Assembly: GCA_964364455.1 (NCBI GenBank)
Contig: CAYIMR010000002.1
Coordinates: 35,911 to 82,219, forward strand
Direction of reading: 5' to 3'
Source: an uncultured Planctomycetales bacterium
GTDB taxonomy: Bacteria > Omnitrophota > Gorgyraeia > Zapsychrales > Zapsychraceae
Length of the DNA stretch: 46,309 nucleotides
Shown: piece by piece, positions 3,749 to 46,118 of the stretch
Layout of the letters: every line of letters starts with the position of its first letter
Position numbering within the stretch: position 1 is the first letter of the stretch
Notes under the pieces: generated by a model
Database searches by the model: none
The model's input: only the letters and a program-made list of their open reading frames with translations
What the model was told of the DNA's origin: nothing
Translations under genes and position numbers: made by a program

Positions 3749-5590
3749 TTACTTGACCCTTAGAAATTGTTTGTCGAGGAAGTCTTCCGAAAGTTCTACG
3801 ACCGTCGGGCGTCCGTGCGGGCAAGTAAAAGGATCCAGGCACTGGATCAGTTCATCACGCATGTGCTCGGCCTGTTGGGGTTTCAAAACATCACCAGCCA
3901 TGACCGAGGAGCGGCAGGCGCGCCGGGCGAGCGCGTCGTGATCGCCGCGGCGCAGCGGGCCACCTCCCAGGATGTATCTTGCCGCTTTTTCAATATCCTT
4001 CAAGAACGTCGGATAACTGTGTACCGCGATCGTTTCCTTGTCCCAGAGGTTAGTGTCGAGGCCGATCGTATTGAATTGATCCCGCGCTTTCTCCCAGACG
4101 AGCATTTCCTGGGTGGAGAGTTTGAGCAAAACGGGGCTTAAAAGTCGCTGGACTTCGACATCGCCTTTATTCATCTGCCGGATGAGGCGTTCGTAGGTGA
4201 TCCGCTCGGCCGCGGCGTGTTGGTCGATAACAAGCATCGCGCGCCCCGCCTGGAACAGTTGATATTTGTTCAGTAAGGCCCCAATGTAAATCGCGCCGGA
4301 TAATTTGCTCTGAAGGTTTTCCTGGTGATTTAATTCGGGAACAAAGAAAGCCTGCTGTTCTCTCGTTGCCGTCACCGCAGGGTAAGCATAATCTCCGCCT
4401 TGGGCCGCCTCAAAAATTTCCGTTCCCGGCGCGGAATCGAACGTCACCTCCGACGGGTGCGCGCCCATGAGCGCCCGTTCAACGACATCTTCTCTGGTCC
4501 CTGGCCCCTGGCCTCTGGTCACTGCTTGCGTTTGTCCCGTTCCCAAAAGCGTCTCCTCGCACAGCCGCCGCAGGATCGAACAGATTTTTTGTTCATCCCT
4601 GATCTTGACCTCGCGTTTAGTCGGATGGATATTGACGTCGATCTCCTTCGCCGGGAGATGGAGGGAGACGACAAAAAGTGGATACAGGTCTTTGGGCATG
4701 ATGAGCCGGTATACCTGGTTGAGATGAAAGCTGATCGCTTTATTCTGCACCGGCCGGCCGTTGACGAAGATAAACTGCATGTCCCGGCGGGCGCGTTTGA
4801 TGTTGATATCACCGAGGATCAAATCGACACGTAGGGACAGGCCTAGGCCTGTCCCTACGGCCAAAAGATGTTTTTCATCGACGTGCAGGACGTGCGCCAC
4901 GCGGCTTTTCGCGTCTGAACAAGGCGCGGCATCGACCAGATCCCTGCCTTCATGGGTTAATTGAAACCGCACGTTATGATGAAGCAGGGCATAGGGGATA
5001 AAGGTGTTGAGGATCTGATGGATCTCGGTTGTATCGGATTTGAGGAATTTCCGCCGGGCAGGGGTGTTGAAGAATAGTCCCTTGACCTCGATCTCGGTTC
5101 CGTGCCCGGGCATGGCGCAGGGACGCAGATCGAGCCTTTTACCACCGCGTATATGAATTTGCCACCCCGCCAAAGGCGGGGTGCCCCCGCGCCTGGTTTC
5201 ACCGAAGGTGGAACCAGCGGGGGCTTCTTTACTGCGCAACGTCACATCCGCGATGGCGCCGATGGAATAAAGGGCCTCGCCGCGAAAGCCCAGGGACTGA
5301 ATGTCATAGAGGTCATCGGCTTTTTCAATTTTGCTGGTCGCGTGGCGTGAGAAAATTTTTTCCAGATCGTCGCGTTCGATACCGTGGCCGTTGTCTTTGA
5401 TCTTGATCAGTGTTTTGCCGGCTTCCCGCAGGGAAACTTCGATCGTGTCCGCGCCGCCCGCCTGCCGGCGAGGCAGGGCATCGAGGGCGTTCTCAACGAG
5501 CTCCTTGATGACGGAGGCGGGCCGCTCGATGACCTCGCCCGCGGCGATCTTGCTGATGACTTCTTCTTTCAGGATGTGGACGGTAGACAT
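3749..5590 (-). CDS. mutL: DNA mismatch repair protein MutL (endonuclease type)
   Basis: The N-terminus KIAAGEVIERPASVIKELVENALDA is the GHKL ATPase signature. Other motifs present are FNTPARRKF, DQHAAAERITYE and CPHGRPT. It carries several GC-rich palindromic in-frame segments. Confidence 0.95.
   Translation of the reverse strand: MSTVHILKEEVISKIAAGEVIERPASVIKELVENALDALPRRQAGGADTIEVSLREAGKTLIKIKDNGHGIERDDLEKIFSRHATSKIEKADDLYDIQSLGFRGEALYSIGAIADVTLRSKEAPAGSTFGETRRGGTPPLAGWQIHIRGGKRLDLRPCAMPGHGTEIEVKGLFFNTPARRKFLKSDTTEIHQILNTFIPYALLHHNVRFQLTHEGRDLVDAAPCSDAKSRVAHVLHVDEKHLLAVGTGLGLSLRVDLILGDINIKRARRDMQFIFVNGRPVQNKAISFHLNQVYRLIMPKDLYPLFVVSLHLPAKEIDVNIHPTKREVKIRDEQKICSILRRLCEETLLGTGQTQAVTRGQGPGTREDVVERALMGAHPSEVTFDSAPGTEIFEAAQGGDYAYPAVTATREQQAFFVPELNHQENLQSKLSGAIYIGALLNKYQLFQAGRAMLVIDQHAAAERITYERLIRQMNKGDVEVQRLLSPVLLKLSTQEMLVWEKARDQFNTIGLDTNLWDKETIAVHSYPTFLKDIEKAARYILGGGPLRRGDHDALARRACRSSVMAGDVLKPQQAEHMRDELIQCLDPFTCPHGRPTVVELSEDFLDKQFLRVK
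4831..4860. repeat. family-A GC-rich palindrome in frame inside mutL
   Basis: GTAGGGACAGGCCTAGGCCTGTCCCTAC is a perfect 28-nt palindrome. The 28 nt at 4833-4860 are identical to 10004-10031. It is translated as VGTGLGLSLR. Confidence 0.9.
5163..5224. repeat. two adjacent GC-rich hairpins in frame inside mutL
   Basis: CACCCCGCC-AAA-GGCGGGGTG (5163-5183), then the imperfect GCCCCCGCGCCTGGTTTCACC-GAA-GGTGGAACCAGCGGGGGC (5183-5224). Together they encode ..APAGSTFGETRRGGTPPLAGW... Confidence 0.7.
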
Positions 5591-5600
5591 TATTTTGTCA

Positions 5601-5672
5601 GGAAGATGGAAAATAGAAGATTGAAAATCGATTGTCGATTAACATCCATCTTCCATTCTCTATCTTCTATCC
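5601..5672. repeat. heptamer-word inverted array (GAAGATG/GAAAATA words) between mutL and mutS
   Basis: Central AATCGA-ttg-TCGATT. GAAGAT blocks at 5602-5607 and 5616-5621 pair with ATCTTC at 5662-5667 and 5648-5653. The right arm runs into the last mutS codons. Confidence 0.7.
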
Positions 5673-8278
5673 TCAAGGATTTCTTTCAATTCCCCTAATT
5701 TATTCATCGCCTCCAACGGCGTCATGGTATCAATGTCCATCGCCCGGATCGTTTCTTTGATGGTTTCCGCCATTGGGTCGACGGGCATGTGGAACATATC
5801 CAGTTGTTTTTCCGGCGCCTGTTCGCCTTTAAGATTTTCTTTCAAGTCATTTTTCAATTCTAATTGCGTCAATATGTGTTTGGCGCGGCCGATGATCGCC
5901 TTGGGGATGCCGGCCAATTTAGCGACGTAGATGCCGTAGCTGTCATCGGTCGAGCCGGGGATGATCTTGTGCAGGAAAATGACCTCATCTTTCCATTCTT
6001 TGACCGCGACGTTATAGTTTTTTGCGCCGGAGGCGCACCCGCCTTTGGCGGATACATTTCTGTCCGCAAGCGCCGTTAACTCATGGAAGTGGGTCGCGAA
6101 AAGCGTTCGCGTTTTGGTCGTTTGCAAATGTTCGGCGATCGCCCAGGCGAGGCTTAATCCGTCGTAGGTGCTCGTTCCCCGGCCGATCTCATCAAGGATG
6201 ATGAGGCTGCGGTTGGTCATGTTGTTGAGGATATCCGCCGTTTCGTTCATCTCGACCATAAAAGTGCTTTGGCCTTTGTTGATATCATCGTGCGCGCCGA
6301 TGCGCGTGAAAATTTTGTCGACGATCCCGATATGGGCGGAGGAGGCCGGGATAAAACTTCCCATCTGGGCCATGATGGTCAGGATGGCGGTTTGCCGGAT
6401 ATAGGTGGATTTCCCGGACATGTTCGGTCCGGTCAGGACGATCAGATGATTTTCTTCGCCATCGAGCAGGGTATCATTGGGCACAAAAGGACCGGCGAGT
6501 ATTTTTTCAACGACCGGGTGGCGGCCGTCTTTGATCTCCAGCAACGTATCATCGGCGATTCCCGGGGCAATGTAGCCCGGCGATTGGGCCAGCACGCGCA
6601 GGGAGTAGAGGGTATCGAGTGTGGCGATGTTTTGGCAAAATTGATGAAGCCGCGCCGAATGCGCCAGGACCTCCTGCTGGATTTCCTGCACGAGCGCGTT
6701 CTCGATCTTGGAGATCTTTTCTTCGGCGGTAAGGATCTTTTCTTCATATTCTTTGAGCGCGGGCGTGATGTATCGTTCGCCGTTAACGAGCGTTTGTTTG
6801 CGGATATAATCCTGTGGCGCAAGATGCTGGTTCGCCTTGGTGATCTCGATGTAGTATCCGAAAACCTGGTTGAACCCGACTTTAAGCGAATTGATCCCCG
6901 TGCGTTCGATCTCGTTTTCCTGGAATTTTTTAAGCCACTGCCGTCCGTTTTCTTGGATATCACGCAAGCTATCAAGTTCAGCGTGATATCCAACGCGGAT
7001 GATCTTTCCTTCGGGATGGGCGAGAGGGATCGTTTCATTGACGGCGCGGTCCAAATATTGGCGCAGGTCAGGGATGTCTTCGCAATCAAACAGGGAATTC
7101 CGGGACATGACGGGGTTGACCGCGTTCTGGATTGCGGGCAAAAGCGCTAACGTATTGCGGATCGCCAAAAGGTCTTTGGCGTGGGTGTAACCGCAACTTA
7201 ACCGTGAGATGTTTTTTTCAAGGTCTGGAATTTTATCGAGAAGATCTTTCAACTGCCGGCAGACTTCAGGATGGGCGCTTAACAGCCGGATAGCATCCTG
7301 GCGTTCGATAATATCCGGCACGTTTTTCAAGGGATGCGTCAGCCAGAACCGGAACATCCGCCGGCCCAGCGGCGTCAAAGTATGATCGAGCGTTTCGATG
7401 AGCGTGTCTAATTCCAGGCCGCGCGCGGCCGCCGGGGAGATAAAGACATAATCGTCGTCGTTGTACAGGGCGATACGGTCGATGTGTCTGAGCGGCTGTT
7501 TGTTCATCTCCCGCAGATATTCCAACAGCGCGCCGGCGCTTGAGGTGGCGCTGGTGAGTTCTTCGATGCCAAATCCATGAAGGTTGTGGACGGCAAAATG
7601 TTCGCACAGTGTTTTTCTGGCGATATCCTGGTTGAAGGACCATTCTCCGTACGGGCTTAAGGCGATATTTTTCGCGCGTAAAAGCGGATGTTCAAAAATA
7701 GGTTTGATTTTCGCTTCGGGTTCTTCCCCCTGCGGGTAAACGCATTCACAAATGGGGAGCTTGGCGATGAGTTCCGCCAGCCGCCCGTATCCCAGGGGAT
7801 ACTGGTTCGTTTGAATGGTCCCGCTGGTCGGATCGGTGAACGCAACTCCGATATTCTTTTCGTTGGGGCTTAAACACAACAGATACCGCGCGTCGCTGTT
7901 GTGCTCATCGAGATAGGTGCCGGCGGTGATGACGCGGATGACGTCGCGCCGGACAATGCCCTTGGCGAGCGCGGGCCGCCCATGGCGAGCCTCGCCTTCG
8001 GCGGGGTCTTCCATCTGTTCGCAAATGGCGACTTTGTAGCCGGATCTGATGATCCTGGCGATGTAATTGTCGGCGGCGTGCCAGGGCACCCCGCACATGG
8101 GGATCTTGTTCGAAGAACCTTTGCCGCGGGAGGTCAAAACGAGATCAAGCGTCCTGGATGCCAGCTTGGCATCATCATAAAACATCTCATAGAAATCGCC
8201 GAGGCGAAATAAGAGGATGCAGTCTTTGTGCTTCTCTTTTATAGAGCGGTACTGCGCGAGCATGGGGGTTTCGGACAT
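5660..8278 (-). CDS. mutS: DNA mismatch repair protein MutS
   Basis: MLAQYRSIKEKHKDCILLFRLGDFYEMFYDDA at the N-terminus, Walker A GPNMSGKSTYIRQ, STFMVEM and DEIGRGTSTYDG. Confidence 0.97.
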   Translation of the reverse strand: MSETPMLAQYRSIKEKHKDCILLFRLGDFYEMFYDDAKLASRTLDLVLTSRGKGSSNKIPMCGVPWHAADNYIARIIRSGYKVAICEQMEDPAEGEARHGRPALAKGIVRRDVIRVITAGTYLDEHNSDARYLLCLSPNEKNIGVAFTDPTSGTIQTNQYPLGYGRLAELIAKLPICECVYPQGEEPEAKIKPIFEHPLLRAKNIALSPYGEWSFNQDIARKTLCEHFAVHNLHGFGIEELTSATSSAGALLEYLREMNKQPLRHIDRIALYNDDDYVFISPAAARGLELDTLIETLDHTLTPLGRRMFRFWLTHPLKNVPDIIERQDAIRLLSAHPEVCRQLKDLLDKIPDLEKNISRLSCGYTHAKDLLAIRNTLALLPAIQNAVNPVMSRNSLFDCEDIPDLRQYLDRAVNETIPLAHPEGKIIRVGYHAELDSLRDIQENGRQWLKKFQENEIERTGINSLKVGFNQVFGYYIEITKANQHLAPQDYIRKQTLVNGERYITPALKEYEEKILTAEEKISKIENALVQEIQQEVLAHSARLHQFCQNIATLDTLYSLRVLAQSPGYIAPGIADDTLLEIKDGRHPVVEKILAGPFVPNDTLLDGEENHLIVLTGPNMSGKSTYIRQTAILTIMAQMGSFIPASSAHIGIVDKIFTRIGAHDDINKGQSTFMVEMNETADILNNMTNRSLIILDEIGRGTSTYDGLSLAWAIAEHLQTTKTRTLFATHFHELTALADRNVSAKGGCASGAKNYNVAVKEWKDEVIFLHKIIPGSTDDSYGIYVAKLAGIPKAIIGRAKHILTQLELKNDLKENLKGEQAPEKQLDMFHMPVDPMAETIKETIRAMDIDTMTPLEAMNKLGELKEILEDRR
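6023..6051. repeat. two small GC-rich hairpins in frame inside mutS
   Basis: TGCGCC-GGA-GGCGCA (6023-6037) and CCGCC-TTT-GGCGG (6039-6051). They encode the AKGGCASGA segment. Confidence 0.6.
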
Positions 8279-8897: not shown

Positions 8898-8930
8898 AGT
8901 AGGAAAGTAGGAAATAGTAGGAAAGGAAGG
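8898..8930 (+). promoter_or_regulatory. three direct AGTAGGAA repeats between the -10 and the RBS; possible AbrB-antitoxin operator
   Basis: The sequence is AGTAGGAA AGTAGGAAAT AGTAGGAAAGGAAGG. It ends in the RBS of the antitoxin gene. Confidence 0.4.
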
Positions 8931-10741: not shown

Positions 10742-10770
10742 TTGACAGTTTTGGGTAAATGTATGAGAAT
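10742..10770 (+). promoter_or_regulatory. possible promoter of the merR-secretin pair
   Basis: TTGACA (10742-10747), 17-nt spacer, GAGAAT (10765-10770). It is followed by a GCTATC-n6-GATAGC palindrome. Confidence 0.35.
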
Positions 10771-10794: not shown

Positions 10795-10870
10795 AAGTCG
10801 TAAGCGATAAGTCGTAAGCAAAGAATTTGATATTTTTTTGGCTTACCACTTATGGCTTGCGACTTACGAC
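10795..10870. repeat. heptamer-word inverted array (AAGTCGT/AAGCGAT words)
   Basis: AAGTCGTAAGCGATAAGTCGTAAGC pairs with GCTTACCACTTATGGCTTGCGACTTACGAC. Confidence 0.75.
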
Positions 10871-11112: not shown

Positions 11113-12598
11113 AAAATGTATTTTTATTTTGATGATGGCCATTTGGGCCGCGGGTGGGACCCCTACGGGCCGCGCGCGGGCGCAATCTTTGAACGCGGTT
11201 TCAAACAGCGTCTCACAGCCGGATGGCCCTGAAACGACGACGTCCGCTGAAGTGACTGCCGCGAAAGTCGTTAAAACAACACTCGACACACTGGATGTCC
11301 AGGAAATGGACATTAAAGAGGTCCTCAAGAGAATAGCTTTTCAAAGCGGCCTTGAGATCATTTTAGACGAAGATATCAGCGCGCGGGTGACGATCTATTT
11401 GAAGGACGTCGATGTTTTTGACGCTTTGCGGATCATCCTGGATACCAATAACCTGGCTTACAGCCAGGATCCTGGAGAGACAGAAGGCAGGCAGGCCGCG
11501 GCCGTGCATGTGATGACGGCCCGGAATTTCGAGGGCCGCTTCGGTTATCCGTTCAGCCAGAAGATCCAAACGAAGATCATCCCGCTTTCCCACGCGCGGC
11601 CTGAGAAGGTAAGCGCGCTTTTGGACAAGATGAAAGGCGCGGCCGGCAAGGTCATTTACAGCGAGGGCACCAGATCGTTTATTCTCATCGACGCTGCGCA
11701 ACAGCTCACGTCCATGAGCGATCTTGTCCGGGAGATGGACGTTCCCGTGGAATCCAAAACGTTTGATCTGCGTCACGTAAAAGCCAGGGACATGGCCCCG
11801 CGTATCCAGGAATTCTTGACCAGGAACGTCGGGAGGGTCGAATTCGGCGAACGCGAAACGGCCTTGACCATCGATGACACGCCGGCGCGGCTCGTGGAGA
11901 TCGGTAAACGTATTGAAGAGCTCGACAAACCCGCCAAGGAGGTTTTTCTTGATGTCAAGATCCTTCAGATCATCCTGAACGACGAAAACCGCCAGGGAGT
12001 TGACTGGGAGGCGATCGTTTCCGATTATCAGAGTTTTCCTTTCACGGGTTTTGAGGGAAAAGGGGCCGGCATTCTAAGCGTTGGAACTGTTTCGGAAGAA
12101 GATTATGTCGTGCTCCTGGATGCCTTGGACACCGTCGGCATGCTTAATACGGTATCGAATTTGAAAATGACGGCGGGTGCCGCGGGGCGTAATGAAATTT
12201 TGATCCGGGGCAAGGACTTGCTGGCGGATTTTGAGCCGCAGGAACCGCAGGAGGGGTTGACGGGCAAAACGGAAGTGCTTTATGGTGTTGGTTCCAGGCT
12301 GGGAGATGACGCGCAGATCATGTTGGAGATCCAGCCACAGGTGCTGGGTGAGTCTGTCCCGCTCCGCGGGACCTACTCGGCCGGTGAGAAAAAAGGCCTA
12401 ACGCTCAAACTTCAGGAAGGCACCACGGTTGTCGTCGGCGGGCTGTTCAAGAGCGTTCATGTTGAGGCAACACGCAAGATCCCCTTACTCGGCGATCTGC
12501 CGTTATTGGGGTTCGCGTTCCGGCTGCAGGGACAACGCCTGCGGGAAACGGAGATCATCGTCTTTTTAACGCCGAAGGTGGTTGTGAAAGAAAAGTAA
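11102..12598 (+). CDS. secretin (short PilQ/GspD-family outer-membrane channel)
   Basis: A signal peptide is present. The N-domain reads DVQEMDIKEVLKRIAFQSGLEIILDEDI. The C-terminal secretin domain reads GTTVVVGGLF..KIPLLGDLPLLGFAFR..TEIIVFLTPKVV. It overlaps the merR stop by 11 nt. Confidence 0.85.
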   Translation: MMIRKCIFILMMAIWAAGGTPTGRARAQSLNAVSNSVSQPDGPETTTSAEVTAAKVVKTTLDTLDVQEMDIKEVLKRIAFQSGLEIILDEDISARVTIYLKDVDVFDALRIILDTNNLAYSQDPGETEGRQAAAVHVMTARNFEGRFGYPFSQKIQTKIIPLSHARPEKVSALLDKMKGAAGKVIYSEGTRSFILIDAAQQLTSMSDLVREMDVPVESKTFDLRHVKARDMAPRIQEFLTRNVGRVEFGERETALTIDDTPARLVEIGKRIEELDKPAKEVFLDVKILQIILNDENRQGVDWEAIVSDYQSFPFTGFEGKGAGILSVGTVSEEDYVVLLDALDTVGMLNTVSNLKMTAGAAGRNEILIRGKDLLADFEPQEPQEGLTGKTEVLYGVGSRLGDDAQIMLEIQPQVLGESVPLRGTYSAGEKKGLTLKLQEGTTVVVGGLFKSVHVEATRKIPLLGDLPLLGFAFRLQGQRLRETEIIVFLTPKVVVKEK

Positions 12599-12726
12599 GA
12601 AGTAAAGAGTGAGAAGTAAGAAGAGTAAAGAAAAAAGGTGGATAATGTAAAACTGAGGTAATCAGGCAGGCAAAATCCAAACCGGCGTTATTTTTTTTAC
12701 TTCTTACTTCCTTCTTCTTACTTCTA
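12594..12726. repeat. heptamer-word inverted array (AGTAAGA words) with a ~65-nt loop
   Basis: AGTAAGAAGTAAAGAGTGAGAAGTAAGAAGAGTAAAG pairs with TTTACTTCTTACTTCCTTCTTCTTACTTCTA. Confidence 0.75.
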
Positions 12727-12735
12727 ACTTTTACC

Positions 12736-13854
12736 GTGTATATGCTTCGAAATCATTTTTCAATTTGGCTGCTTATCTTGTCCCTCGCGCTGTTCGCCAG
12801 CGGCTGCGCGACAGTCCCCGGTGGGCGGATGACGGATTCCTCCCCGCGGCCAAAGGCTCCCCGCGGGGAGGGAGCCTTTGGCCGCAAGCGGATCTACCTT
12901 AAGGACCTGTGCGACCGGTATTCGCTCGCTTGGCAATGGGACCATATTTCCCAGACGGTGGACCTGAAAATAGACGGCATCAATGTCCGTCTTCTGGTCG
13001 GTAGCAGCGTCTTGTTGCTGGGCAAGGAGCAGGTCAGGCTGAACACTCCGGTTTTGATCGACCAGAGTTCGGTGATGCTGCCCTATGATTTCAAGGCAAA
13101 GGTGATGGACAGATTCCCAGATTTATTTACCGCGAAGGCGCCATCACGATCGCGGGTCACGCGGGTCCCGCGCGTGTTCCGCAAGCTCCGGGAAGTGGTC
13201 ATCGATGCCGGTCACGGCGGCAAAGATCCCGGCGCCATCGGCGTCACAGGCATGAAGGAAAAGACGGTCGTTCTTGATGTTGCCCAGCGGCTAAAAAAGT
13301 TACTGGAGGCCGCGGGGGTCAAGGTGACGATGACCCGCAAAGACGATACGTTCATTTCCCTGCAGGAGCGTACCGAGATCGCCAGCCGATCCAAGGCGGA
13401 TCTGTTTATCAGCATCCACGCGAACGCGAGCTCCGCGCGCAGCGTCCACGGCGTGGAGGCGTATTGTTTGAAGGATTTAGGGACACTTGAGAAAAATGAG
13501 GCCCAGCGCCAGTCGAACCATAAATTGATGTTCAAAAATCTGGCCATGAAAAAAGGTTCTTTGAACCTTGAGGATATCGTTGAGGATATGCTTTATACGC
13601 ACAAGCAGAGCGTTTCTCCAACACTGACGGCAAAACTTGCGGGCCGGGTGGCCCAGACGGCCAAGGCGAATGATCGGGGCGATAAGCAGTCGCGTTTTTT
13701 TGTCCTGCGCAACACGTTGATCCCGGCGGTGTTGGTGGAGATCGGTTTCGTGACCAATCCTAAAGAGGGGCGGTTACTGAAGACCGGCGATTACCGGCAG
13801 AGAATCGCCGAGGGACTGGCGAACGGGATTTTGGGATACAGGGATGGGAAATAA
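12736..13854 (+). CDS. N-acetylmuramoyl-L-alanine amidase (Amidase_3), lipoprotein
   Basis: Lipobox LFASGC, VVIDAGHGGKDPGAIG and DLFISIHANAS. It contains a 39-nt palindromic insert at 12847-12885. Confidence 0.9.
   Translation: MYMLRNHFSIWLLILSLALFASGCATVPGGRMTDSSPRPKAPRGEGAFGRKRIYLKDLCDRYSLAWQWDHISQTVDLKIDGINVRLLVGSSVLLLGKEQVRLNTPVLIDQSSVMLPYDFKAKVMDRFPDLFTAKAPSRSRVTRVPRVFRKLREVVIDAGHGGKDPGAIGVTGMKEKTVVLDVAQRLKKLLEAAGVKVTMTRKDDTFISLQERTEIASRSKADLFISIHANASSARSVHGVEAYCLKDLGTLEKNEAQRQSNHKLMFKNLAMKKGSLNLEDIVEDMLYTHKQSVSPTLTAKLAGRVAQTAKANDRGDKQSRFFVLRNTLIPAVLVEIGFVTNPKEGRLLKTGDYRQRIAEGLANGILGYRDGK
12847..12885. repeat. family-B 39-nt hairpin element in frame inside the amidase gene
   Basis: CGGCCAAAGGCTCCCCGCGGGGAGGGAGCCTTTGGCCGC with a 14-bp stem. 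Translated as RPKAPRGEGAFGR. Confidence 0.9.
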
Positions 13855-14698
13855 CAATCCAATAGGTGTTTTCGATTCCGGCTTGGGCGGGTTGACCGTG
13901 GTCAAGGAATTGATCCGGCAGCTGCCGCAAGAGAGCATCGTTTACTACGGCGATACCGCGCGCGTGCCTTACGGAACCAAGTCCAGGGAATCCATCATCC
14001 GCTTTTCCCATGAGAACACGCGGATCCTTTTAGAACGTGGCGTCAAAATGGTCGTTGTGGCGTGTAACACTTCTTCGAGTTACGCGCTTGTCCAATTGCG
14101 CAAGCATTTTCATTTACCGATCGTGGGCGTTATCGATCCCGGCGCGCGCAAGGCCGCGGAGGTGACGCGTAACCGAAAAGTGGGGGTCATCGCCACGCCG
14201 GCGACGGTCAACAGCCGTTCCTACGCCAAGGCCATTTTCCGTTACGACCGCGCGATTCAAGTGTCCAGCCAGGCGTGTCCTTTGTTCGTTCCATTGGTGG
14301 AGGAAGGCTGGCTGCGCAACCCCGTGACCACGGCCGTGGCCCGCGAATATTTGAAACCTTTACAAAAGACTGGTGTTGACACGCTGGTCTTGGGATGCAC
14401 GCATTATCCGTTGCTGAAAAGCGTTCTCAAAGACGTGATGGGAGCGAAGGTGGCCCTGATCGATTCCGCCACGGAGGTTGCCGCCGAGGTCAAACGTGTC
14501 TTGCAGGACAGACAACTATTGCGCCCGTCCGCCGTTAGGCTCCCTTCGGCCAAAGGCTCCCCGCGGGGAGGGAGCCTTTGGCCGCGGGGAGGAGGAAGAC
14601 GGGCGCAATACAGCTTTTTGATCAGCGACCGGCCGCAACAGTTCGAAAAAACGGCCAGGGAGTTTTTGGGGTACAATATCCGGGCGGTAAAAATCTAA
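13844..14698 (+). CDS. murI: glutamate racemase
   Basis: IGVFDSGLGGLTV, VVACNTSS and LGCTHYPLL. It contains the same 39-nt palindrome at 14547-14585. Confidence 0.93.
   Translation: MGNNNPIGVFDSGLGGLTVVKELIRQLPQESIVYYGDTARVPYGTKSRESIIRFSHENTRILLERGVKMVVVACNTSSSYALVQLRKHFHLPIVGVIDPGARKAAEVTRNRKVGVIATPATVNSRSYAKAIFRYDRAIQVSSQACPLFVPLVEEGWLRNPVTTAVAREYLKPLQKTGVDTLVLGCTHYPLLKSVLKDVMGAKVALIDSATEVAAEVKRVLQDRQLLRPSAVRLPSAKGSPRGGSLWPRGGGRRAQYSFLISDRPQQFEKTAREFLGYNIRAVKI
14547..14585. repeat. family-B 39-nt hairpin element in frame inside murI
   Basis: Identical 39 nt on the same strand, but read in a different frame as SAKGSPRGGSLWPR. Confidence 0.9.
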
Positions 14699-14704
14699 AT
14701 TGTT

Positions 14705-14772
14705 ACGTCGCTCGTCGTCCGTATCTCGTATTTCGTTACGAGATACGAGATACGAGCGACGAAATACGAAAT
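14705..14772. repeat. heptamer-word hairpin (ACGANNN words) between murI and queD
   Basis: Hand pairing of 14705-14736 with 14738-14772 gives about 25 bp with 1-2 mismatches or wobbles. Confidence 0.85.
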
Positions 14773-14773
14773 C

Positions 14774-15136
14774 ATGTTTGAGCTTTCCGTCAAAAGTCAT
14801 ATCGCCTCGGCCCATTTTCTAACAGGATACCAGGGCCGGTGCAAGGACCTGCACGGCCACACCTGGCACATCGAGGCCGTGATCGCCGGCGAAGAGCTGG
14901 ACAGAATCGGCATGGTGGCGGATTTCGCAGGTCTTAAGAAACAATTGAACGAATTCTTGATGCCCCTCGACCACGTGTGTCTGAATGATCTGGAGTATTT
15001 CAAGCGCAACAATCCGACGACTGAAAATATTGCCCAGTATGTCTACCAGAATTTTGCCAAGGTGATCGCTCCGTTGCAGATCAAAAGGGTCCAGGTGTGG
15101 GAATCGGAAACATCGAGTGTGGTGTATTACGAGTAA
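14774..15136 (+). CDS. queD: 6-carboxy-5,6,7,8-tetrahydropterin synthase
   Basis: SAHFL..CKDLHGHTW..GMVADFAGLK..LDHVCLND..NPTTENI matches the QueD/PTPS family pattern. Confidence 0.9.
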   Translation: MFELSVKSHIASAHFLTGYQGRCKDLHGHTWHIEAVIAGEELDRIGMVADFAGLKKQLNEFLMPLDHVCLNDLEYFKRNNPTTENIAQYVYQNFAKVIAPLQIKRVQVWESETSSVVYYE

Positions 15137-15197
15137 GTCACAAGGTCACAATGCCACCAAGTCACCTGTTTGACTTGTGACCTGGTGACCTGGTGAC
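15137..15197. repeat. heptamer-word hairpin (GTCACNN words) between queD and queC
   Basis: CAAGTCA-n6-TGACTTG core, with GGTCAC/GTGACC outer pairs. Confidence 0.8.
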
Positions 15198-15201
15198 TAA
15201 G

Positions 15202-15861
15202 ATGAAAAAAGCAATTGTGCTTCTCTCCGGCGGGCTGGATTCGAGTACGATCCTTTATTACGCCAAGGCCAGGGGATTTCAGCCGTCTTGTCTGATCTTC
15301 GATTACGGGCAGCGCCACCGCGTGGAACTAAAAAGGGCGGCGGCAATCGCGCGGCAGGCGGGGTGCCCGTACCGGATCGTGACGATCCGTCTGCCGTGGG
15401 GCGGGTCGGCGCTTTTGGACAAAAGGATCGGCTTGCCGAAACGGAAGGCGATCGATCCCCGGGAGATCCCCGTCACGTACGTGCCGTCGCGCAACATCAT
15501 CTTTTTAAGTTTCGCGGCGTCTTTCGCGGAAGCGATCGGCGCCCGGTCGATCTTTATCGGCGCCAACGCGATCGATTACTCCGGGTACCCGGATTGCCGG
15601 CCGGAATTTTTTCGCGCGTTCCAGCAGGCGCTGGACCGGGGGCTCAGATCCGGCGTTTCGAACAAGACGATTAAAATTTACGCGCCGCTTCTTCGCAAAA
15701 CCAAGGCGCAGATCATTCAAACGGGGTTGAAGTTGAAAGTCCCGTACGGCCGAACGTGGTCGTGCTACAGTGGCGGGCGCCGGCCTTGCGGCGTTTGCGA
15801 CAGTTGCCTCTTACGCCGCCGGGGATTTGAAGAGGCGGGCGTGGCAGATCCGCTAACTTAG
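15202..15861 (+). CDS. queC: 7-cyano-7-deazaguanine synthase
   Basis: KKAIVLLSGGLDSST, FDYGQRH and a C-terminal CGVCDSC zinc site. The track start GTG 15193 lies in the GTGAC array, so ATG 15202 is preferred. Confidence 0.93.
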   Translation: MKKAIVLLSGGLDSSTILYYAKARGFQPSCLIFDYGQRHRVELKRAAAIARQAGCPYRIVTIRLPWGGSALLDKRIGLPKRKAIDPREIPVTYVPSRNIIFLSFAASFAEAIGARSIFIGANAIDYSGYPDCRPEFFRAFQQALDRGLRSGVSNKTIKIYAPLLRKTKAQIIQTGLKLKVPYGRTWSCYSGGRRPCGVCDSCLLRRRGFEEAGVADPLT

Positions 15862-15869
15862 GTTGCAAT

Positions 15870-15922
15870 GTCACAAAGTTACTCGTCACGCGGGTGACCT
15901 GGCGACCTTGTGTCTTGGTGAC
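15870..15922. repeat. heptamer-word hairpin (GTCAC words) between queC and queE
   Basis: GTCACAAAGTTACTCGTCAC, loop gcgg, then GTGACCTGGCGACCTTGTGTCTTGGTGAC. Confidence 0.8.
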
Positions 15923-15929
15923 TTTGAAT

Positions 15930-16619
15930 ATGAAAGCTAAAATTTCCGAAATATTCCACTCCATCCAGGGCGAAGGCAAGTACACCGGCCGGGAGCAGGT
16001 GTTCGTGCGGTTCTTTGAGTGCAACATGCACTGCGTCTGGTGCGACACGCCCAATACCATCGGCGACACGACCCGCCATTACAAAGAGTACAGCCTTGAG
16101 GAATTGCTCTCCGAGGTGAGAGGCCTGTGGCCGGGCTGCCATTCGGTGAGCTTAACCGGCGGCGAGCCGCTGATGCAGAAGGATTTTATCAAAAAGCTTT
16201 TGCCGTCTTTAAAAAAAGAAGGGATGCGTTCCTGCCTGGAGACCAACGGGATCCTTGACCGGCACCTCGCCGAGATCATCGATGACGCGGATATTATCGC
16301 GATGGATTTCAAATTGCCCAGTTCGACCAAATGCCGGCCGTACTGGGAAGAACACGCGGCGTTCTTGCGGATCGCCCGGCAAAAAGAGGTTTTTATCAAG
16401 GCGGTCATCTCCAGCGACACGGACAAAGAGGATATCGCGCGTTCCGTGGAGCTGGTTGCGGGGATCGACCCGAACATTCTTTTTATCCTGCAGCCAAATT
16501 ATTTCGAGCGGCAAAACGGCGCCCTGGACCGCTGTCTGGATTATCAGGATTATTGCCGGCAATATCTCACCGACGTCAAAGTGATGTCGCAGATGCATAA
16601 GATGTGGAAAATTCGATGA
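15930..16619 (+). CDS. queE: 7-carboxy-7-deazaguanine synthase (radical SAM)
   Basis: ISEIFHSIQGEGKYTG and CNMHCVWCDT (CxxxCxxC). The track start at 15894 lies in the repeat array, so ATG 15930 is preferred. Confidence 0.9.
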   Translation: MKAKISEIFHSIQGEGKYTGREQVFVRFFECNMHCVWCDTPNTIGDTTRHYKEYSLEELLSEVRGLWPGCHSVSLTGGEPLMQKDFIKKLLPSLKKEGMRSCLETNGILDRHLAEIIDDADIIAMDFKLPSSTKCRPYWEEHAAFLRIARQKEVFIKAVISSDTDKEDIARSVELVAGIDPNILFILQPNYFERQNGALDRCLDYQDYCRQYLTDVKVMSQMHKMWKIR

Positions 16620-16698
16620 GTCACAAGGTCACAACGTCACCAGGTTACGCGGGTGACAGGTGACAGGTGACAGGTGACAGGTGACGTGGTGACCTGGT
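16620..16698. repeat. heptamer-word hairpin between queE and queF, with five perfect GTGACAG units
   Basis: GTCACAAGGTCACAACGTCACCAGGTTAC, loop gcgg, then (GTGACAG)x5 GTGACGTGGTGACCTGGT. Confidence 0.85.
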
Positions 16699-17865: not shown

Positions 17866-17943
17866 TAGTAAATGGTGAATGGTGAAAAATCAGGCCCGAA
17901 CCATCAGCCATTAACTACTAACCGTTTACCACGCACCATTTAC
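17866..17943. repeat. heptamer-word inverted array (AATGGTG words) between rph and rdgB
   Basis: GTAAATGGTG (17868-17877) is perfectly complementary to CACCATTTAC (17934-17943). Confidence 0.7.
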
Positions 17944-18594: not shown

Positions 18595-18656
18595 GTATCT
18601 CGTATCTCGTCGCTCGTATCTCGCACGAAATACGGTATACGAGATACGAAATACGA
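18595..18656. repeat. heptamer-word hairpin (ACGANNN words) between the convergent rdgB and AsmA-like genes
   Basis: GTATCTCGTATCTCGTCGCTCGTATCTCG pairs with CGAAATACGGTATACGAGATACGAAATACGA. Confidence 0.8.
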
Positions 18657-22861: not shown

Positions 22862-22928
22862 AGGGGCAAGTAGCAAGGGTCAGGGAACAAGGTTTTTCCT
22901 TGCTCCTTGTTTCTTGCCCCTTGCCCCT
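22862..22928. repeat. heptamer-word hairpin (GGCAAGN words) between divergent genes
   Basis: AGGGGCAAGTAGCAAGGGTCAGGGAACAAGG, loop ttttt, then CCTTGCTCCTTGTTTCTTGCCCCTTGCCCCT. Confidence 0.8.
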
Positions 22929-26501: not shown

Positions 26502-26530
26502 TTGACAAAAATCGGGCCTGATTTTATACT
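26502..26530 (+). promoter_or_regulatory. sigma70-type promoter of glnN
   Basis: TTGACA (26502-26507), exactly 17 nt, TATACT (26525-26530). Confidence 0.6.
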
Positions 26531-26598: not shown

Positions 26599-26645
26599 AA
26601 GTCCTCTTAACGGCCGGAATACGGCCTGCAGAGGACTTTTTATTT
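26599..26645 (+). terminator. intrinsic terminator/attenuator in the glnN 5' leader
   Basis: AAGTCCTCT..(GGCCG-GAATA-CGGCC)..AGAGGACTT followed by TTTTATTT. It lies about 70 nt downstream of the -10 and about 130 nt upstream of the start codon. Confidence 0.6.
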
Positions 26646-26775
26646 GATACCATTTCCCTGCATTAAGAAAAATGGTATCAAATAACCCTAAGCAAGCGAC
26701 GAGCGTAAGCGAGGAGCGCGGCGAAGGGTAACTTATCAAAGAAACTATCACACAACAGAATAAAGGAGATTTGTG

Positions 26776-28961: not shown

Positions 28962-29008
28962 CCCTTTGGTTCCTTGGTCGACAGACAAAAGTGAGCCAAA
29001 GGGTTTTT
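28962..29008 (+). terminator. possible terminator after glnN
   Basis: CCCTTTGG (28962-28969) pairs with CCAAAGGG (28996-29003) and is followed by TTTTT. The long loop makes it weak. Confidence 0.35.
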
Positions 29009-29024
29009 CCATCTACCTAATTCT

Positions 29025-29768
29025 ATGATCCTTATCTTTAAACACATCGAGATCGAAGGTCCGGAAACGATCGGCCAGTTTTTTGTTGATGAGGGTTTTG
29101 AGATCAAGATCCTTGGCCTGCATAAAGGGGATCGCCTTCCTGGAACATTTGATCATTTGGATGCCGTGATCAGCCTAGGCGGCCCGATGAATGTGTATGA
29201 GGAAGGCAAGTACCCGTTTTTAAAGGAAGAAAATGTCTTTTTGCAGGGGATTCTGGAGCAGGGGATTCCGTTTATGGGGATCTGTCTGGGAGGCCAGTTG
29301 CTCGCCAAAGCTTCCGGCTCAAAAGTGGGACGCTCACCGGAAAAAGAGATCGGATTTGCGCCGGTCCAGTTGACGGCCGCTGGTAAGAAAGATCCGTTAT
29401 TTCAAGGTGTTGCGGGACCATTGGACGTATTCCAATGGCATGAAGATATGTTTGAAGTTCCCGCCGCTGGCACGCTGCTGGCTTCATCGTCGGTGTGTCC
29501 TAACCAAGCGTTTCGCGTGGGCAAATGCGCTTACGGCGTGCAATTCCATATCGAGATCACCGATAAAAGCATCCGGGAATGGTCTGATGAATATTTTGAA
29601 GCAGGGGACCGGACATTTGCCGAAAAGAAGAAGGCGATGCTCGAGGATTATCAGAAGAAAAAAGACCAATTCCACGGCGTTGCTGATAAAATATACATGA
29701 ACTTTCTGGATATAATCTTGCAGTCACAAAGTCACCAGGTCACCAAGTCACCGGAAAAAATCGGGTGA
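29025..29768 (+). CDS. class I glutamine amidotransferase (GuaA-like GATase1 domain protein)
   Basis: PFMGICLGGQLL (nucleophile Cys) and GVQFHIE (His/Glu). The last ~15 codons read into the GTCAC array. Confidence 0.85.
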   Translation: MILIFKHIEIEGPETIGQFFVDEGFEIKILGLHKGDRLPGTFDHLDAVISLGGPMNVYEEGKYPFLKEENVFLQGILEQGIPFMGICLGGQLLAKASGSKVGRSPEKEIGFAPVQLTAAGKKDPLFQGVAGPLDVFQWHEDMFEVPAAGTLLASSSVCPNQAFRVGKCAYGVQFHIEITDKSIREWSDEYFEAGDRTFAEKKKAMLEDYQKKKDQFHGVADKIYMNFLDIILQSQSHQVTKSPEKIG

Positions 29769-29792
29769 CGGGTGACTTTGTGTCTTTGTGAC
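29723..29792. repeat. heptamer-word hairpin (GTCAC words) between the GATase gene and nadE
   Basis: GTCACAAAGTCACCAGGTCACCAAGTCACC pairs with GGGTGACGGGTGACTTTGTGTCTTTGTGAC. The GATase stop codon lies in the right arm. Confidence 0.8.
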
Positions 29793-39346: not shown

Positions 39347-39556
39347 GGGACAAATTTACTGTGACATACTGTGACACGCTACTGTGACATGTAATGTTTT
39401 TTATTAATCAGATGTATCTGTATGCTTCTCAATTGGTTAGGTGTATATTCGTGGAGGCCAGACAAGCCGGAATTTTAGGTTGAATTCTGCGGGGAAAATC
39501 GGTACAATAAAAACGCTAGATTTTGGGATATTGTTGAATAAATAGAGGAGAAAAAC

Positions 39557-44415: not shown

Positions 44416-44525
44416 AGAGTAAAGAGTAAGGAGTAAGAAGTAAGAAGAAAAAAAGAAGAAAAAATATCCAGGCACGAATGCCGAGCGGGATATAGGAATA
44501 TAATTCCTTCTTACTTCTTACTTTT
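44416..44525. repeat. heptamer-word inverted array (AGTAAGA words) between gltB and gltD
   Basis: AGAGTAAAGAGTAAGGAGTAAGAAGTAAGAAG pairs with CTTCTTACTTCTTACTTTT. It uses the same word family as 12594-12726. Confidence 0.75.
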
Positions 44526-46081: not shown

Positions 46082-46118
46082 ACGAAATACGAACGACGAA
46101 CGACGAGCGACGAACGAC
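46082..46118 (+). repeat. single-arm heptamer array (ACGANNN x5) upstream of glpK
   Basis: ACGAAAT ACGAACG ACGAACG ACGAGCG ACGAACG. No clear complementary arm was seen nearby. Confidence 0.7.

Follow-up and report, generated by a model that had tools for sequence, protein, structure and literature searches.

Hairpins of tandem 7–8-nt words at gene junctions in an Omnitrophota genome and its relatives

The stretch analysed here, referred to throughout as the window, comprises 46,309 nucleotides (nt) of contig CAYIMR010000002.1 (assembly GCA_964364455.1, positions 35,911 to 82,219 of the forward strand) from an uncultured Planctomycetales bacterium placed by GTDB in the Omnitrophota. About 6.5% of it is intergenic. 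An initial annotation, made from the sequence alone, had proposed that degenerate tandem heptamers faced by their reverse complements form long hairpins at most gene junctions, and these hairpins are our subject. The genes that flank them were named from NCBIfam. In the first part of the window they are mutL, mutS, a CPBP protease gene, a merR-like regulator, secretin and amidase genes, murI, queD, queC, queE, queF, rph, rdgB and an AsmA-like gene. The later part carries genes for a DnaQ-like exonuclease, ptsP, type III glnA, a glutamine amidotransferase, nadE, gltB, gltD and glpK.

Hairpins at the gene junctions of the window

All 13 loci that had been listed are present where they were placed, with tandem arrays called at each by Tandem Repeats Finder. 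The output of this program for the window has 43 rows, with period 7 dominant and some of period 8; 20 arrays are of period 7 and seven of period 8. Arms, paired by an inverted-repeat search, are 74-95% complementary. Each locus was folded with RNAfold and compared with 200 dinucleotide-preserving shuffles to give a z-score. When 80-nt windows are ranked by raw minimum free energy, hairpins and G+C-rich coding sequence are mixed together, and the shuffle-based scores alone are informative. Folding is far better than in shuffled controls for 11 of the 12 proposed hairpins, with z from -3.2 to -10.2. The exceptions are the hairpin between queC and queE and the array upstream of glpK, the latter single-armed as had been described. 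The loci are as follows.

5601-5672, minus strand: hairpin of GAAGATG/GAAAATA words between mutS (5660-8278, minus strand) and mutL (3749-5590, minus strand); z -4.5; the sense-strand 5′ arm overlaps the final codons and stop of mutS
10795-10870, plus strand: hairpin of AAGTCGT/AAGCGAT words in the leader of the merR-like gene; z -10.2; promoter-like TTGACA-17-GAGAAT upstream at 10742-10770, called ATG (10852) under the 3′ arm
12594-12726, plus strand: hairpin of AGTAAGA words with a loop of about 50 nt, from the secretin gene to the amidase gene; z -6.6; the first word includes the TAA stop of the secretin gene
14705-14772, plus strand: ACGANNN (CGTATCT/ACGAGAT) hairpin, murI to queD; z -7.2; ends 2-7 nt upstream of the queD ATG
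15137-15197, plus strand: hairpin of 8-nt GTCAC/GTGAC words, queD to queC; z -3.2; begins one base past the TAA and leaves 4 nt before the ATG
15870-15922, plus strand: decayed GTCAC-family hairpin, queC to queE; z -0.55
16620-16698, plus strand: GTCAC-family hairpin with one arm expanded (GTGACAG x5, 16652-16685), queE to queF; z -3.6; an AAGGA Shine-Dalgarno-like motif lies between it and the queF ATG
17866-17943, plus strand: hairpin of AATGGTG words, rph (RNase PH) to rdgB; z -4.2
18595-18656, unstranded: ACGANNN-family hairpin filling the convergent gap from the rdgB stop to the AsmA-like stop; z -5.8
22862-22928, plus strand: GGGGCAAG/CTTGCCCC hairpin upstream of a GAF-domain gene; z -6.8; begins within the TAG of a 72-amino-acid open reading frame (ORF)
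29723-29792, plus strand: GTCAC-family hairpin, glutamine amidotransferase gene to nadE; z -8.2; the amidotransferase stop (29766-29768) is inside the 3′ arm and the nadE ATG is 8 nt past the end
44416-44525, plus strand: hairpin of AGTAAGA words with a loop of about 60 nt, gltB to gltD; z -5.8
46082-46118, plus strand: single-arm ACGAACG array with no complementary partner; z +0.24; ends 5 nt before the glpK ATG

The heptameric periodicity is intergenic and not genic, as had been expected. At lag 7 the intergenic sequence of the window has a base identity of 0.332 and the coding sequence one of 0.242, and at lag 14 the values are 0.309 and 0.248, respectively; lags near 7 give 0.26-0.29, without such an excess. 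Every hairpin lies within, or overlaps the edge of, the non-coding fraction. The proposed word length of seven stands for most families. It does not stand for the GTCAC family, which has period 8 except in the expanded GTGACAG run, and there the five perfect units are recovered (4.9 copies, 100% matches). The covariance models of Rfam 15 give no match at the gathering score anywhere in the window, and a reading of the hairpins as preQ1 riboswitches was rejected on this result and on the defining features. The observation is confirmed: the hairpins are real, non-random and intergenic.

Might they be products of assembly or sequencing? Low-complexity palindromes are error-prone in assembly, and L161, a long-read-like contig of a near-identical strain, has many 1-nt indels. 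Against this, orthologous hairpins turn up in assemblies made independently of one another (ENA, JGI, Logan and, as metagenome-assembled genomes or MAGs, GTDB), where they differ coherently by word units and behave as inherited sequence. The chance that they are an artefact is negligible.

The hairpins punctuate the queD-queC-queE-queF cluster, as reported at the outset, and all 12 occupy co-directional spacers, convergent spacers or a leader. They had been assigned to divergent gaps as well, and here the window disagrees, with none in its approximately four divergent spacers; one divergent spacer with a hairpin is found in the relative L001 (3849-3985). Over 26 curated junctions from the window and its relatives, stems start at a median of 1.5 nt past the stop and end at a median of 8.5 nt before the next ATG, many taking in 1-3 bases of the stop codon. 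The stems abut both stop and start, and the hairpin is nearly the entire spacer. In L166, from the same genome as the window, the glpK stop falls within a hairpin loop. The repeats mislead automatic start-codon calling: naive, longest-ORF starts lie inside the arms (17872 as opposed to 17953, 15193 to 15202, 15894 to 15930, and also 22900), and homology and strain annotations put the true starts just past the 3′ arm.

Strong stems directly past stops, including a convergent pair, raise the idea of U-tract-independent terminators or attenuators after most genes, for which E. coli REP325, partly Rho-dependent and with no canonical U-tract, provides a precedent (bioRxiv 10.64898/2026.03.23.713779). 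As intrinsic terminators the hairpins were rejected. Five or more T within 8 nt past the stem are present at only one of the 12, in agreement with the earlier remark that most lack a 3′ U-tract, and a consensus terminator scan, mostly noise, does not pick them out. The broader idea must also contend with the 11 missing T-runs, and with a canonical stem followed by TTTTT at approximately 28985-29012 of the window, which this genome evidently has alongside the hairpins. In addition queDCEF and gltBD, each expected to be transcribed as one unit, have hairpins in their interior, and a further hairpin occupies a 5′ leader (10795-10870); full termination at such places would silence downstream genes without a promoter-like site of their own. 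We consider termination a very unlikely explanation.

Dispersed families and turnover between genomes

QueC-based searches place the window in Candidatus Omnitrophota and gave L001 (JACROV010000083; 91% QueC identity, 85-89% nucleotide identity to the window) and L002 (UBA10147; 82% and 77-83%, respectively) as the closest GTDB MAGs. Orthologous slots were also compared in L081, L082, L083, L084 and L114, these genomes being 77-90% identical, and in the distant Omnitrophota L003, L085 and L086, with 58% QueC identity. An exact-protein look-up added near-identical contigs, several of them from Hainich groundwater samples (ENA ERZ1292636, ERZ1292631, ERZ1292621 and others) and further ones from a JGI metagenome and a Logan assembly. 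The bacterium comes from Hainich groundwater. The strain contigs L161-L165 are 98.7-99.7% identical to the window, L162-L165 being short-read assemblies.

The initial annotation held that structure rather than sequence is maintained. The comparison does not support this. Loci with the same word can be aligned as copies of one dispersed element and did not form independently. All four GTCAC hairpins in the window can be aligned over approximately 60 nt, both among themselves and to copies from L001 and L081, the order of word variants included, and clustering of the arrays of the clade gives a CAGTC family with 14 members in the relatives. Non-orthologous sites also share members of the ACGANNN, GTCAC, AGTAAGA and GGGGCAAG families, among others, three such sites being in L002 for the GGGGCAAG/CTTGCCCC family, with copy pairs within one genome up to 97.5% identical over 40 nt. 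One composite family, whose members are about 140 nt long and enclose a nested inner hairpin, has two sites in L001, one upstream of mutS and one in the gap from the amidase gene to murI, and is seen in L083 and L084 between queC and queE.

The words are of 7-8 nt, sometimes 10 nt, each with a conserved core of 4-5 nt, and there are at least eight unrelated cores within 46 kb. The invariant cores are the paired columns (GTCAC/GTGAC; TCAG/CTGA) while the variable word positions are mostly unpaired, and the resulting stems consist of 5-6-bp helices broken every 7-8 nt. Of word turnover and compensatory change, which it had been proposed to look for at orthologous junctions, only the first is seen. 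Compensatory double changes number none among 19 predicted pairs of the CAGTC family and none among 18 of the GTCAC family, a result that is uninformative rather than contrary given that the paired columns are invariant. With invariant cores as the paired columns and no compensatory change, self-complementarity is a consequence of palindromic origin, and selection for it is not demonstrated.

Another explanation is that the cores (GTCAC, TCAGNC, ACGA, GTAAG, GGCAAG) are binding units for a protein that recognises DNA or RNA in a 7-8-nt register (on single strands this could be one of the cold-shock/S1 type), with the inverted arms acting as two opposed arrays. Invariant cores set among variable, mostly unpaired linker positions are consistent with this, as is the single-arm array directly upstream of the glpK start. 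The latter recalls the TAACTGA arrays of Beggiatoaceae, for which binding of S1, Csp or CsrA has been proposed (PMC4679880). However, so many unrelated cores in so short a stretch would demand many specificities or none, families are interchangeable within a slot, and no candidate protein was found. We judge protein binding to be quite improbable.

Related arrays and hairpins are found away from the listed junctions. In the genome of the window a single-arm GGGGCAAG array lies in the coding region of carA, at an inter-domain linker (L166 19429-19460), and the carA-carB spacer is filled by a hairpin of about 150 nt made of 10-nt words (L166 20022-20170). The ORF at 2-2149 of the window encodes the C terminus of a giant protein (see also L168 13442-21842), for which the gene call in the parent contig gives 11,306 amino acids. 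The part in the window has no Pfam or NCBIfam match, and the gene carries three in-frame single-arm heptamer arrays, at 1708-1739, 1909-1939 (CAGGGTA) and 1951-1983 (ACGAGCG).

Different genomes hold different families in the same slot. Between queD and queC, where the window has GTCAC, a CAGTC hairpin is present in L001, L081 and L084 and an AGAAGCA hairpin with a 60-nt loop in L002; L082 has no hairpin, and the two genes overlap in an ATGA stop/start. Families are likewise swapped at queC-queE, queE-queF, rph-rdgB (CAGTC in L001, L002 and L114, a spacer of 15 nt in L082) and the convergent rdgB/AsmA slot (GGGGCAAG family in L002, AGACCAT family in L082 and L114). The leader of the merR-like gene has the CCGGATA family in L001 and the AGTGATC family in L002. 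Swaps include a non-heptamer G+C-rich hairpin and one-arm expansions, such as 9 x CTGAAGA in L084. At murI-queD the ACGANNN family of the window is shared by L001, L002 and L084, and the L082 spacer is 4 nt. The rdgB/AsmA hairpin matches that of L001 at 56 of 62 positions when flipped and at 48 of 62 directly, a better match that indicates inversion in place. Adjacent or nested hairpins are seen at queC-queE in L081 and L114, at 4316-4525 in L002 and at 734-883 in L083.

In the distant Omnitrophota the corresponding spacers are 11-30 nt long and have no hairpins. More widely, 122 of 161 queC loci, mostly from Proteobacteria and other phyla, are without them. Among the 14 loci retrieved from Thermoanaerobaculia, however, 11 have hairpins of period 7 or 8 with locus-specific words next to queC, and such hairpins occur in one Gemmatimonadaceae contig, another Omnitrophota lineage (L006) and several unassigned metagenome contigs. 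Hairpin-bearing loci include L013, L031, L035, L041, L042, L070 and L078 (MAGs of Thermoanaerobaculia, other Acidobacteriota and Gemmatimonadaceae), and some queC-junction arrays in these phyla have 10-14 copies.

The window also contains an island of low G+C content at 32.7-39.7 kb (0.42-0.45 against 0.51-0.58), which encodes ArsR, a Cu/Zn efflux protein and an ABC/MacB-like transporter and has a DUF4143 ATPase gene just upstream. It is probably acquired DNA. No heptamer hairpins or arrays are present in the island.

Slippage, one of the origins suggested for the repeats, is directly shown in units of whole words by the strains that are about 99% identical. The short-read contigs L162-L165 have no indels outside hairpins in approximately 14.6 kb and four indel calls inside them. 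An insertion of 8 nt at 15174-15183 is present in L163 (CTTGTGAC) and L164 (aligned as TTGTGACT), and the same 8 nt are found in L161. L163 has a further 7 nt, GGTGACA, at 16652, giving six GTGACAG copies as opposed to five, and 1 nt at 15905. Substitutions affect five of 1322 hairpin sites and 43 of 4821 third codon positions, a difference that is not significant.

All four hairpin substitutions of L163, which is 98.8% identical to the window, fall in the queC-queE hairpin and all are transitions. This copy has canonical words and folds at -27 kcal/mol, against -20 kcal/mol for the window, and canonical GTCAC words are retained in the L001 copy too. Comparison of 15870-15922 of the window with 1606-1674 of L163 thus gives four substitutions and one indel within about 45 nt in strains otherwise approximately 1% diverged. 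Such a cluster suggests local hypermutation and decay in the lineage of the window, or conversion from another copy.

Origin of the hairpins and possible effects in transcripts

Our interpretation, to which we give an even chance of being correct, is that the hairpins are DNA palindromes resembling REP elements and MITEs (miniature transposable elements with inverted repeats), which slippage lengthens, copying spreads and transcribed spacers tolerate, probably with REP-like effects in mRNA as a by-product or a weakly selected trait. Copies of the same family do fill unrelated junctions from the stop to just before the start, and they change by word slippage, in-place inversion, family replacement, adjacent or nested insertion and loss. 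The interpretation is also supported by their absence from the low-GC island and by the second, apparently mobile palindrome described below.

How might such elements grow and persist? Replication slippage would lengthen the arrays, with loops of 7-8 nt evading MutS/MutL repair. In E. coli, loops of this size escape MutS-dependent repair, which is only assumed for the present organism; mutS and mutL are both encoded in the window. Palindromes may arise and spread through fold-back or template-switch copying, or by means of a hairpin-specific enzyme. An insert that folds on itself leaves stop and start adjacent and should do the least harm, for which reason new copies would survive chiefly where spacers are transcribed and non-coding. 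Their position inside operons means that they would fold in operon mRNA. There, by analogy with REP, they could form a barrier to 3′ exonucleases and a partial, U-tract-independent brake on transcription and on terminating ribosomes, and the two together would tune expression ratios within the operon. An effect of this kind would be a by-product or a weakly selected trait and not a conserved signal. One support for the analogy is a 2015 study by Liang, Rudd and Deutscher, which reportedly dealt with REPs within 15 nt of stop codons. By the same analogy we infer a REP-like influence on 3′-end stability, read-through and termination-proximal ribosomes; E. coli REP acts as both terminator and stabiliser (bioRxiv 10.64898/2026.03.23.713779).

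Several points weigh against this interpretation. There is no transposase or RAYT-like gene among the ORFs of the window, and no target-site duplication could be defined, the short matches (ATGA, TAAG) between empty L082 sites and filled ones being inconsistent. Where a family is retained in a slot, the orthologous copies are usually the most similar pairs (0.90-0.92), and copies would thus be mostly inherited vertically, with mobility or replacement only occasional. That hairpins evolve no faster than third codon positions hints at constraint or at correction of one arm by the other. Nor does the interpretation account for 7 nt being favoured over 5, 6 or 9 nt. Finally, selection for a hairpin would also explain the finding of different families in the same slot across genomes.

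This last point leads to the rival view that an inter-cistron stem-loop is needed as RNA punctuation, for 3′-end protection, processing or termination-initiation coupling, and that the words are filler. Slots remain occupied in spite of family change, stems abut stop and start codons, the divergent, promoter-only spacers of the window are free of hairpins, and hairpins take substitutions about half as often as third codon positions do, albeit not significantly so. Selection on the transcript should make the sense strand favoured in G·U pairs and folding energy. A comparison of sense and antisense strands on crude ORF models proved too noisy and curated hairpin sets were used instead. In 35 curated hairpins the bias is in the expected direction and weak (82 G·U pairs in sense against 61 in antisense, a mean difference of -1.8 kcal/mol, 20 loci against 15; Wilcoxon p=0.13), and in 16 queC-adjacent hairpins of other phyla it is absent (27 against 28). 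As neither G·U content nor energy is significantly biased, no transcript-specific refinement can be demonstrated. Selected punctuation is also at odds with the zero count of compensatory pairs, with the hairpin-free state of the same junctions in L082 and the distant Omnitrophota, with the decayed queC-queE copy, with the tolerance of in-place inversion and of one-arm expansions that worsen pairing, and with the genes of the low-GC island, which do without hairpins. We regard it as doubtful, although deserving of some weight. The lack of transcript refinement, taken with dispensability, decay, flips and swaps, argues that the elements are primarily DNA palindromes.

A bolder proposal, which we think unlikely, is that a structure-specified class of mobile or self-renewing palindromes extends across several mostly uncultured phyla (Omnitrophota, Thermoanaerobaculia, Gemmatimonadota), the stem bringing stop and start together in the mRNA so that terminating ribosomes could re-initiate across its base without a Shine-Dalgarno sequence, as a bacterial counterpart of ribosome shunting. 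If this were true, tandem-word arms would re-pair in shifted registers to set the strength of coupling, and slippage by word units would make operon stoichiometry rapidly evolvable. A related notion, that absence of a Shine-Dalgarno sequence is specific to hairpin-preceded genes, was rejected since many hairpin-free genes here also lack one.

Comparison with known repeats and other sequence features

The architecture was at first thought to lie outside the described repeat classes. That is correct for CRISPR, rejected here because the units are contiguous words of 7-8 nt with no spacers, and too strong for REP/BIME, cyanobacterial STRR and Xanthomonas arrays, which are relatives. REP, BIME and REPIN sequences are extragenic palindromes of Enterobacteria and Pseudomonas (PMC3733652, PMC3116915). 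Like them, the hairpins are imperfect palindromes that recur as dispersed families (GTCAC with four copies in the window, CAGTC with 14 in relatives) located in co-directional and convergent spacers, mostly just downstream of coding regions. The likeness extends to the formation of mRNA hairpins when transcribed, to sites that vary between close strains, and to adjacent and inverted arrangements. The unpaired GTAG/CGTC tag of REP (PMC3733652) is not found, the tetramer being present in two of 12 hairpin ends and there inside paired words. The arms of REP are of unique sequence whereas here they are tandem words, the families number at least eight in 46 kb, stems often include the stop codon, and no RAYT (Y1 HUH transposase) is encoded among the ORFs of the window.

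Cyanobacterial STRR sequences, known from Calothrix and Nostoc, are mainly direct arrays of cyanobacterium-specific words such as CCCCAGT, TTGGTCA and CAACAGT. They share with the hairpins head-to-tail tandem 7-nt words, several families per genome and an intergenic location, sometimes within operons. The words here (GTCAC.., ACGA..., AGTAAGA, GGCAAG. and others) do not include that set, STRR are not known as paired inverted arrays filling stop-to-start spacers, and the phylum is different.

The nearest published description is that of the Xanthomonas GGGAATC arrays, heptamers that lie beside or overlap stops and include 70-75 convergent inverted pairs able to form stem-loops (PMC4692102). Related Xanthomonas species differ in array length but agree in whether an array is single or inverted (PMC4692102). 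Theirs is one G-rich word, prone to quadruplex formation; the hairpins here use many words, none with G-runs, in which linker positions are degenerate and lengths of 8 and 10 nt also occur. The Beggiatoaceae TAACTGA arrays, which end a few nt before starts where Shine-Dalgarno sequences are rare, are comparable to the single-arm array at 46082-46118, but consist of one word and are almost always direct, with one inverted case in 170 sets (PMC4679880). MITEs, Rickettsia palindromic elements and integron attC sites are also small self-complementary inserts at gene boundaries, and attC follows cassette stops and conserves structure above sequence. No terminal inverted repeats with flanking target duplications, as in MITE-type elements, could be defined here. 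An attC reading was rejected by inspection, the flanks being core syntenic housekeeping genes and not cassettes, and the ends not RYYYAAC/GTTRRRY.

The hairpins therefore combine REP-like and STRR-like properties in a form that is apparently undescribed. A literature search found no description in Omnitrophota or Acidobacteriota, although its coverage was incomplete and it is weak evidence of absence. Over-representation of heptamers in bacterial intergenic DNA was reportedly noted in 1990 and again in 2007. The role of heptamer repeats is essentially unworked (PMC4692102; preprint 10.1101/2022.06.06.494920), and this lineage offers an unusually clean system, with many word families per genome and each hairpin slotted between known housekeeping genes. 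Public groundwater metagenomes hold a natural allelic series of word gain and loss, flips, swaps and empty sites. The pattern links the literatures on REP-type palindromes and STRR-type simple repeats and reaches several poorly known phyla. In practical terms the hairpins can lengthen or shorten reading frames, and as hot spots they matter for assembly breaks and strain typing alike. Should they tune operon expression, they would represent fast, non-coding regulatory variation in ultra-small groundwater bacteria.

A second class of palindrome is present in the window. The 39-nt, G+C-rich GGCCAAAGGCTCCCCGCGGGGAGGGAGCCTTTGGCC occurs as two identical in-frame copies, at 12847-12885 in the N-terminal region of the amidase and at 14547-14585 in the C-terminal tail of MurI. 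L001, L002 and L084 all lack its core at the orthologous amidase site, and L001 and L002 lack it at the orthologous murI site as well, with no hit to the murI copy in L084. The murI copy is enclosed in a larger fold, about 100 nt long, whose outer arms are TTGCGCCCGTC/GACGGGCGCAA and whose folding energy is -72.7 kcal/mol. This palindrome has apparently been mobile recently, and its new insertion in frame at two sites points to palindrome mobility being active in the lineage.

Other repeats differ in character from the hairpins. In the long spacer upstream of gltB, at 39357-39390, a 10-11-nt unit TACTGTGACA is repeated three times directly; these repeats look like operators and fall outside the hairpin class. 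Upstream of type III glnA a perfect 16-bp inverted repeat, TTATTTGATACCATTT(n14)AAATGGTATCAAATAA at 26640-26685, lies downstream of a sigma-70-like promoter (26502-26530, 11/12) and may be a site for a regulator; after it comes a tandem of 13-nt units, AAGCGACGAGCGT x1.9. Finally, a AGTAGGAA x3 array at 8898-8925 adjoins a MazE/PIN-like toxin-antitoxin pair (approximately 8.9-9.6 kb) and, unlike the hairpins, is conserved in sequence, being present in L002 at 1656-1682.

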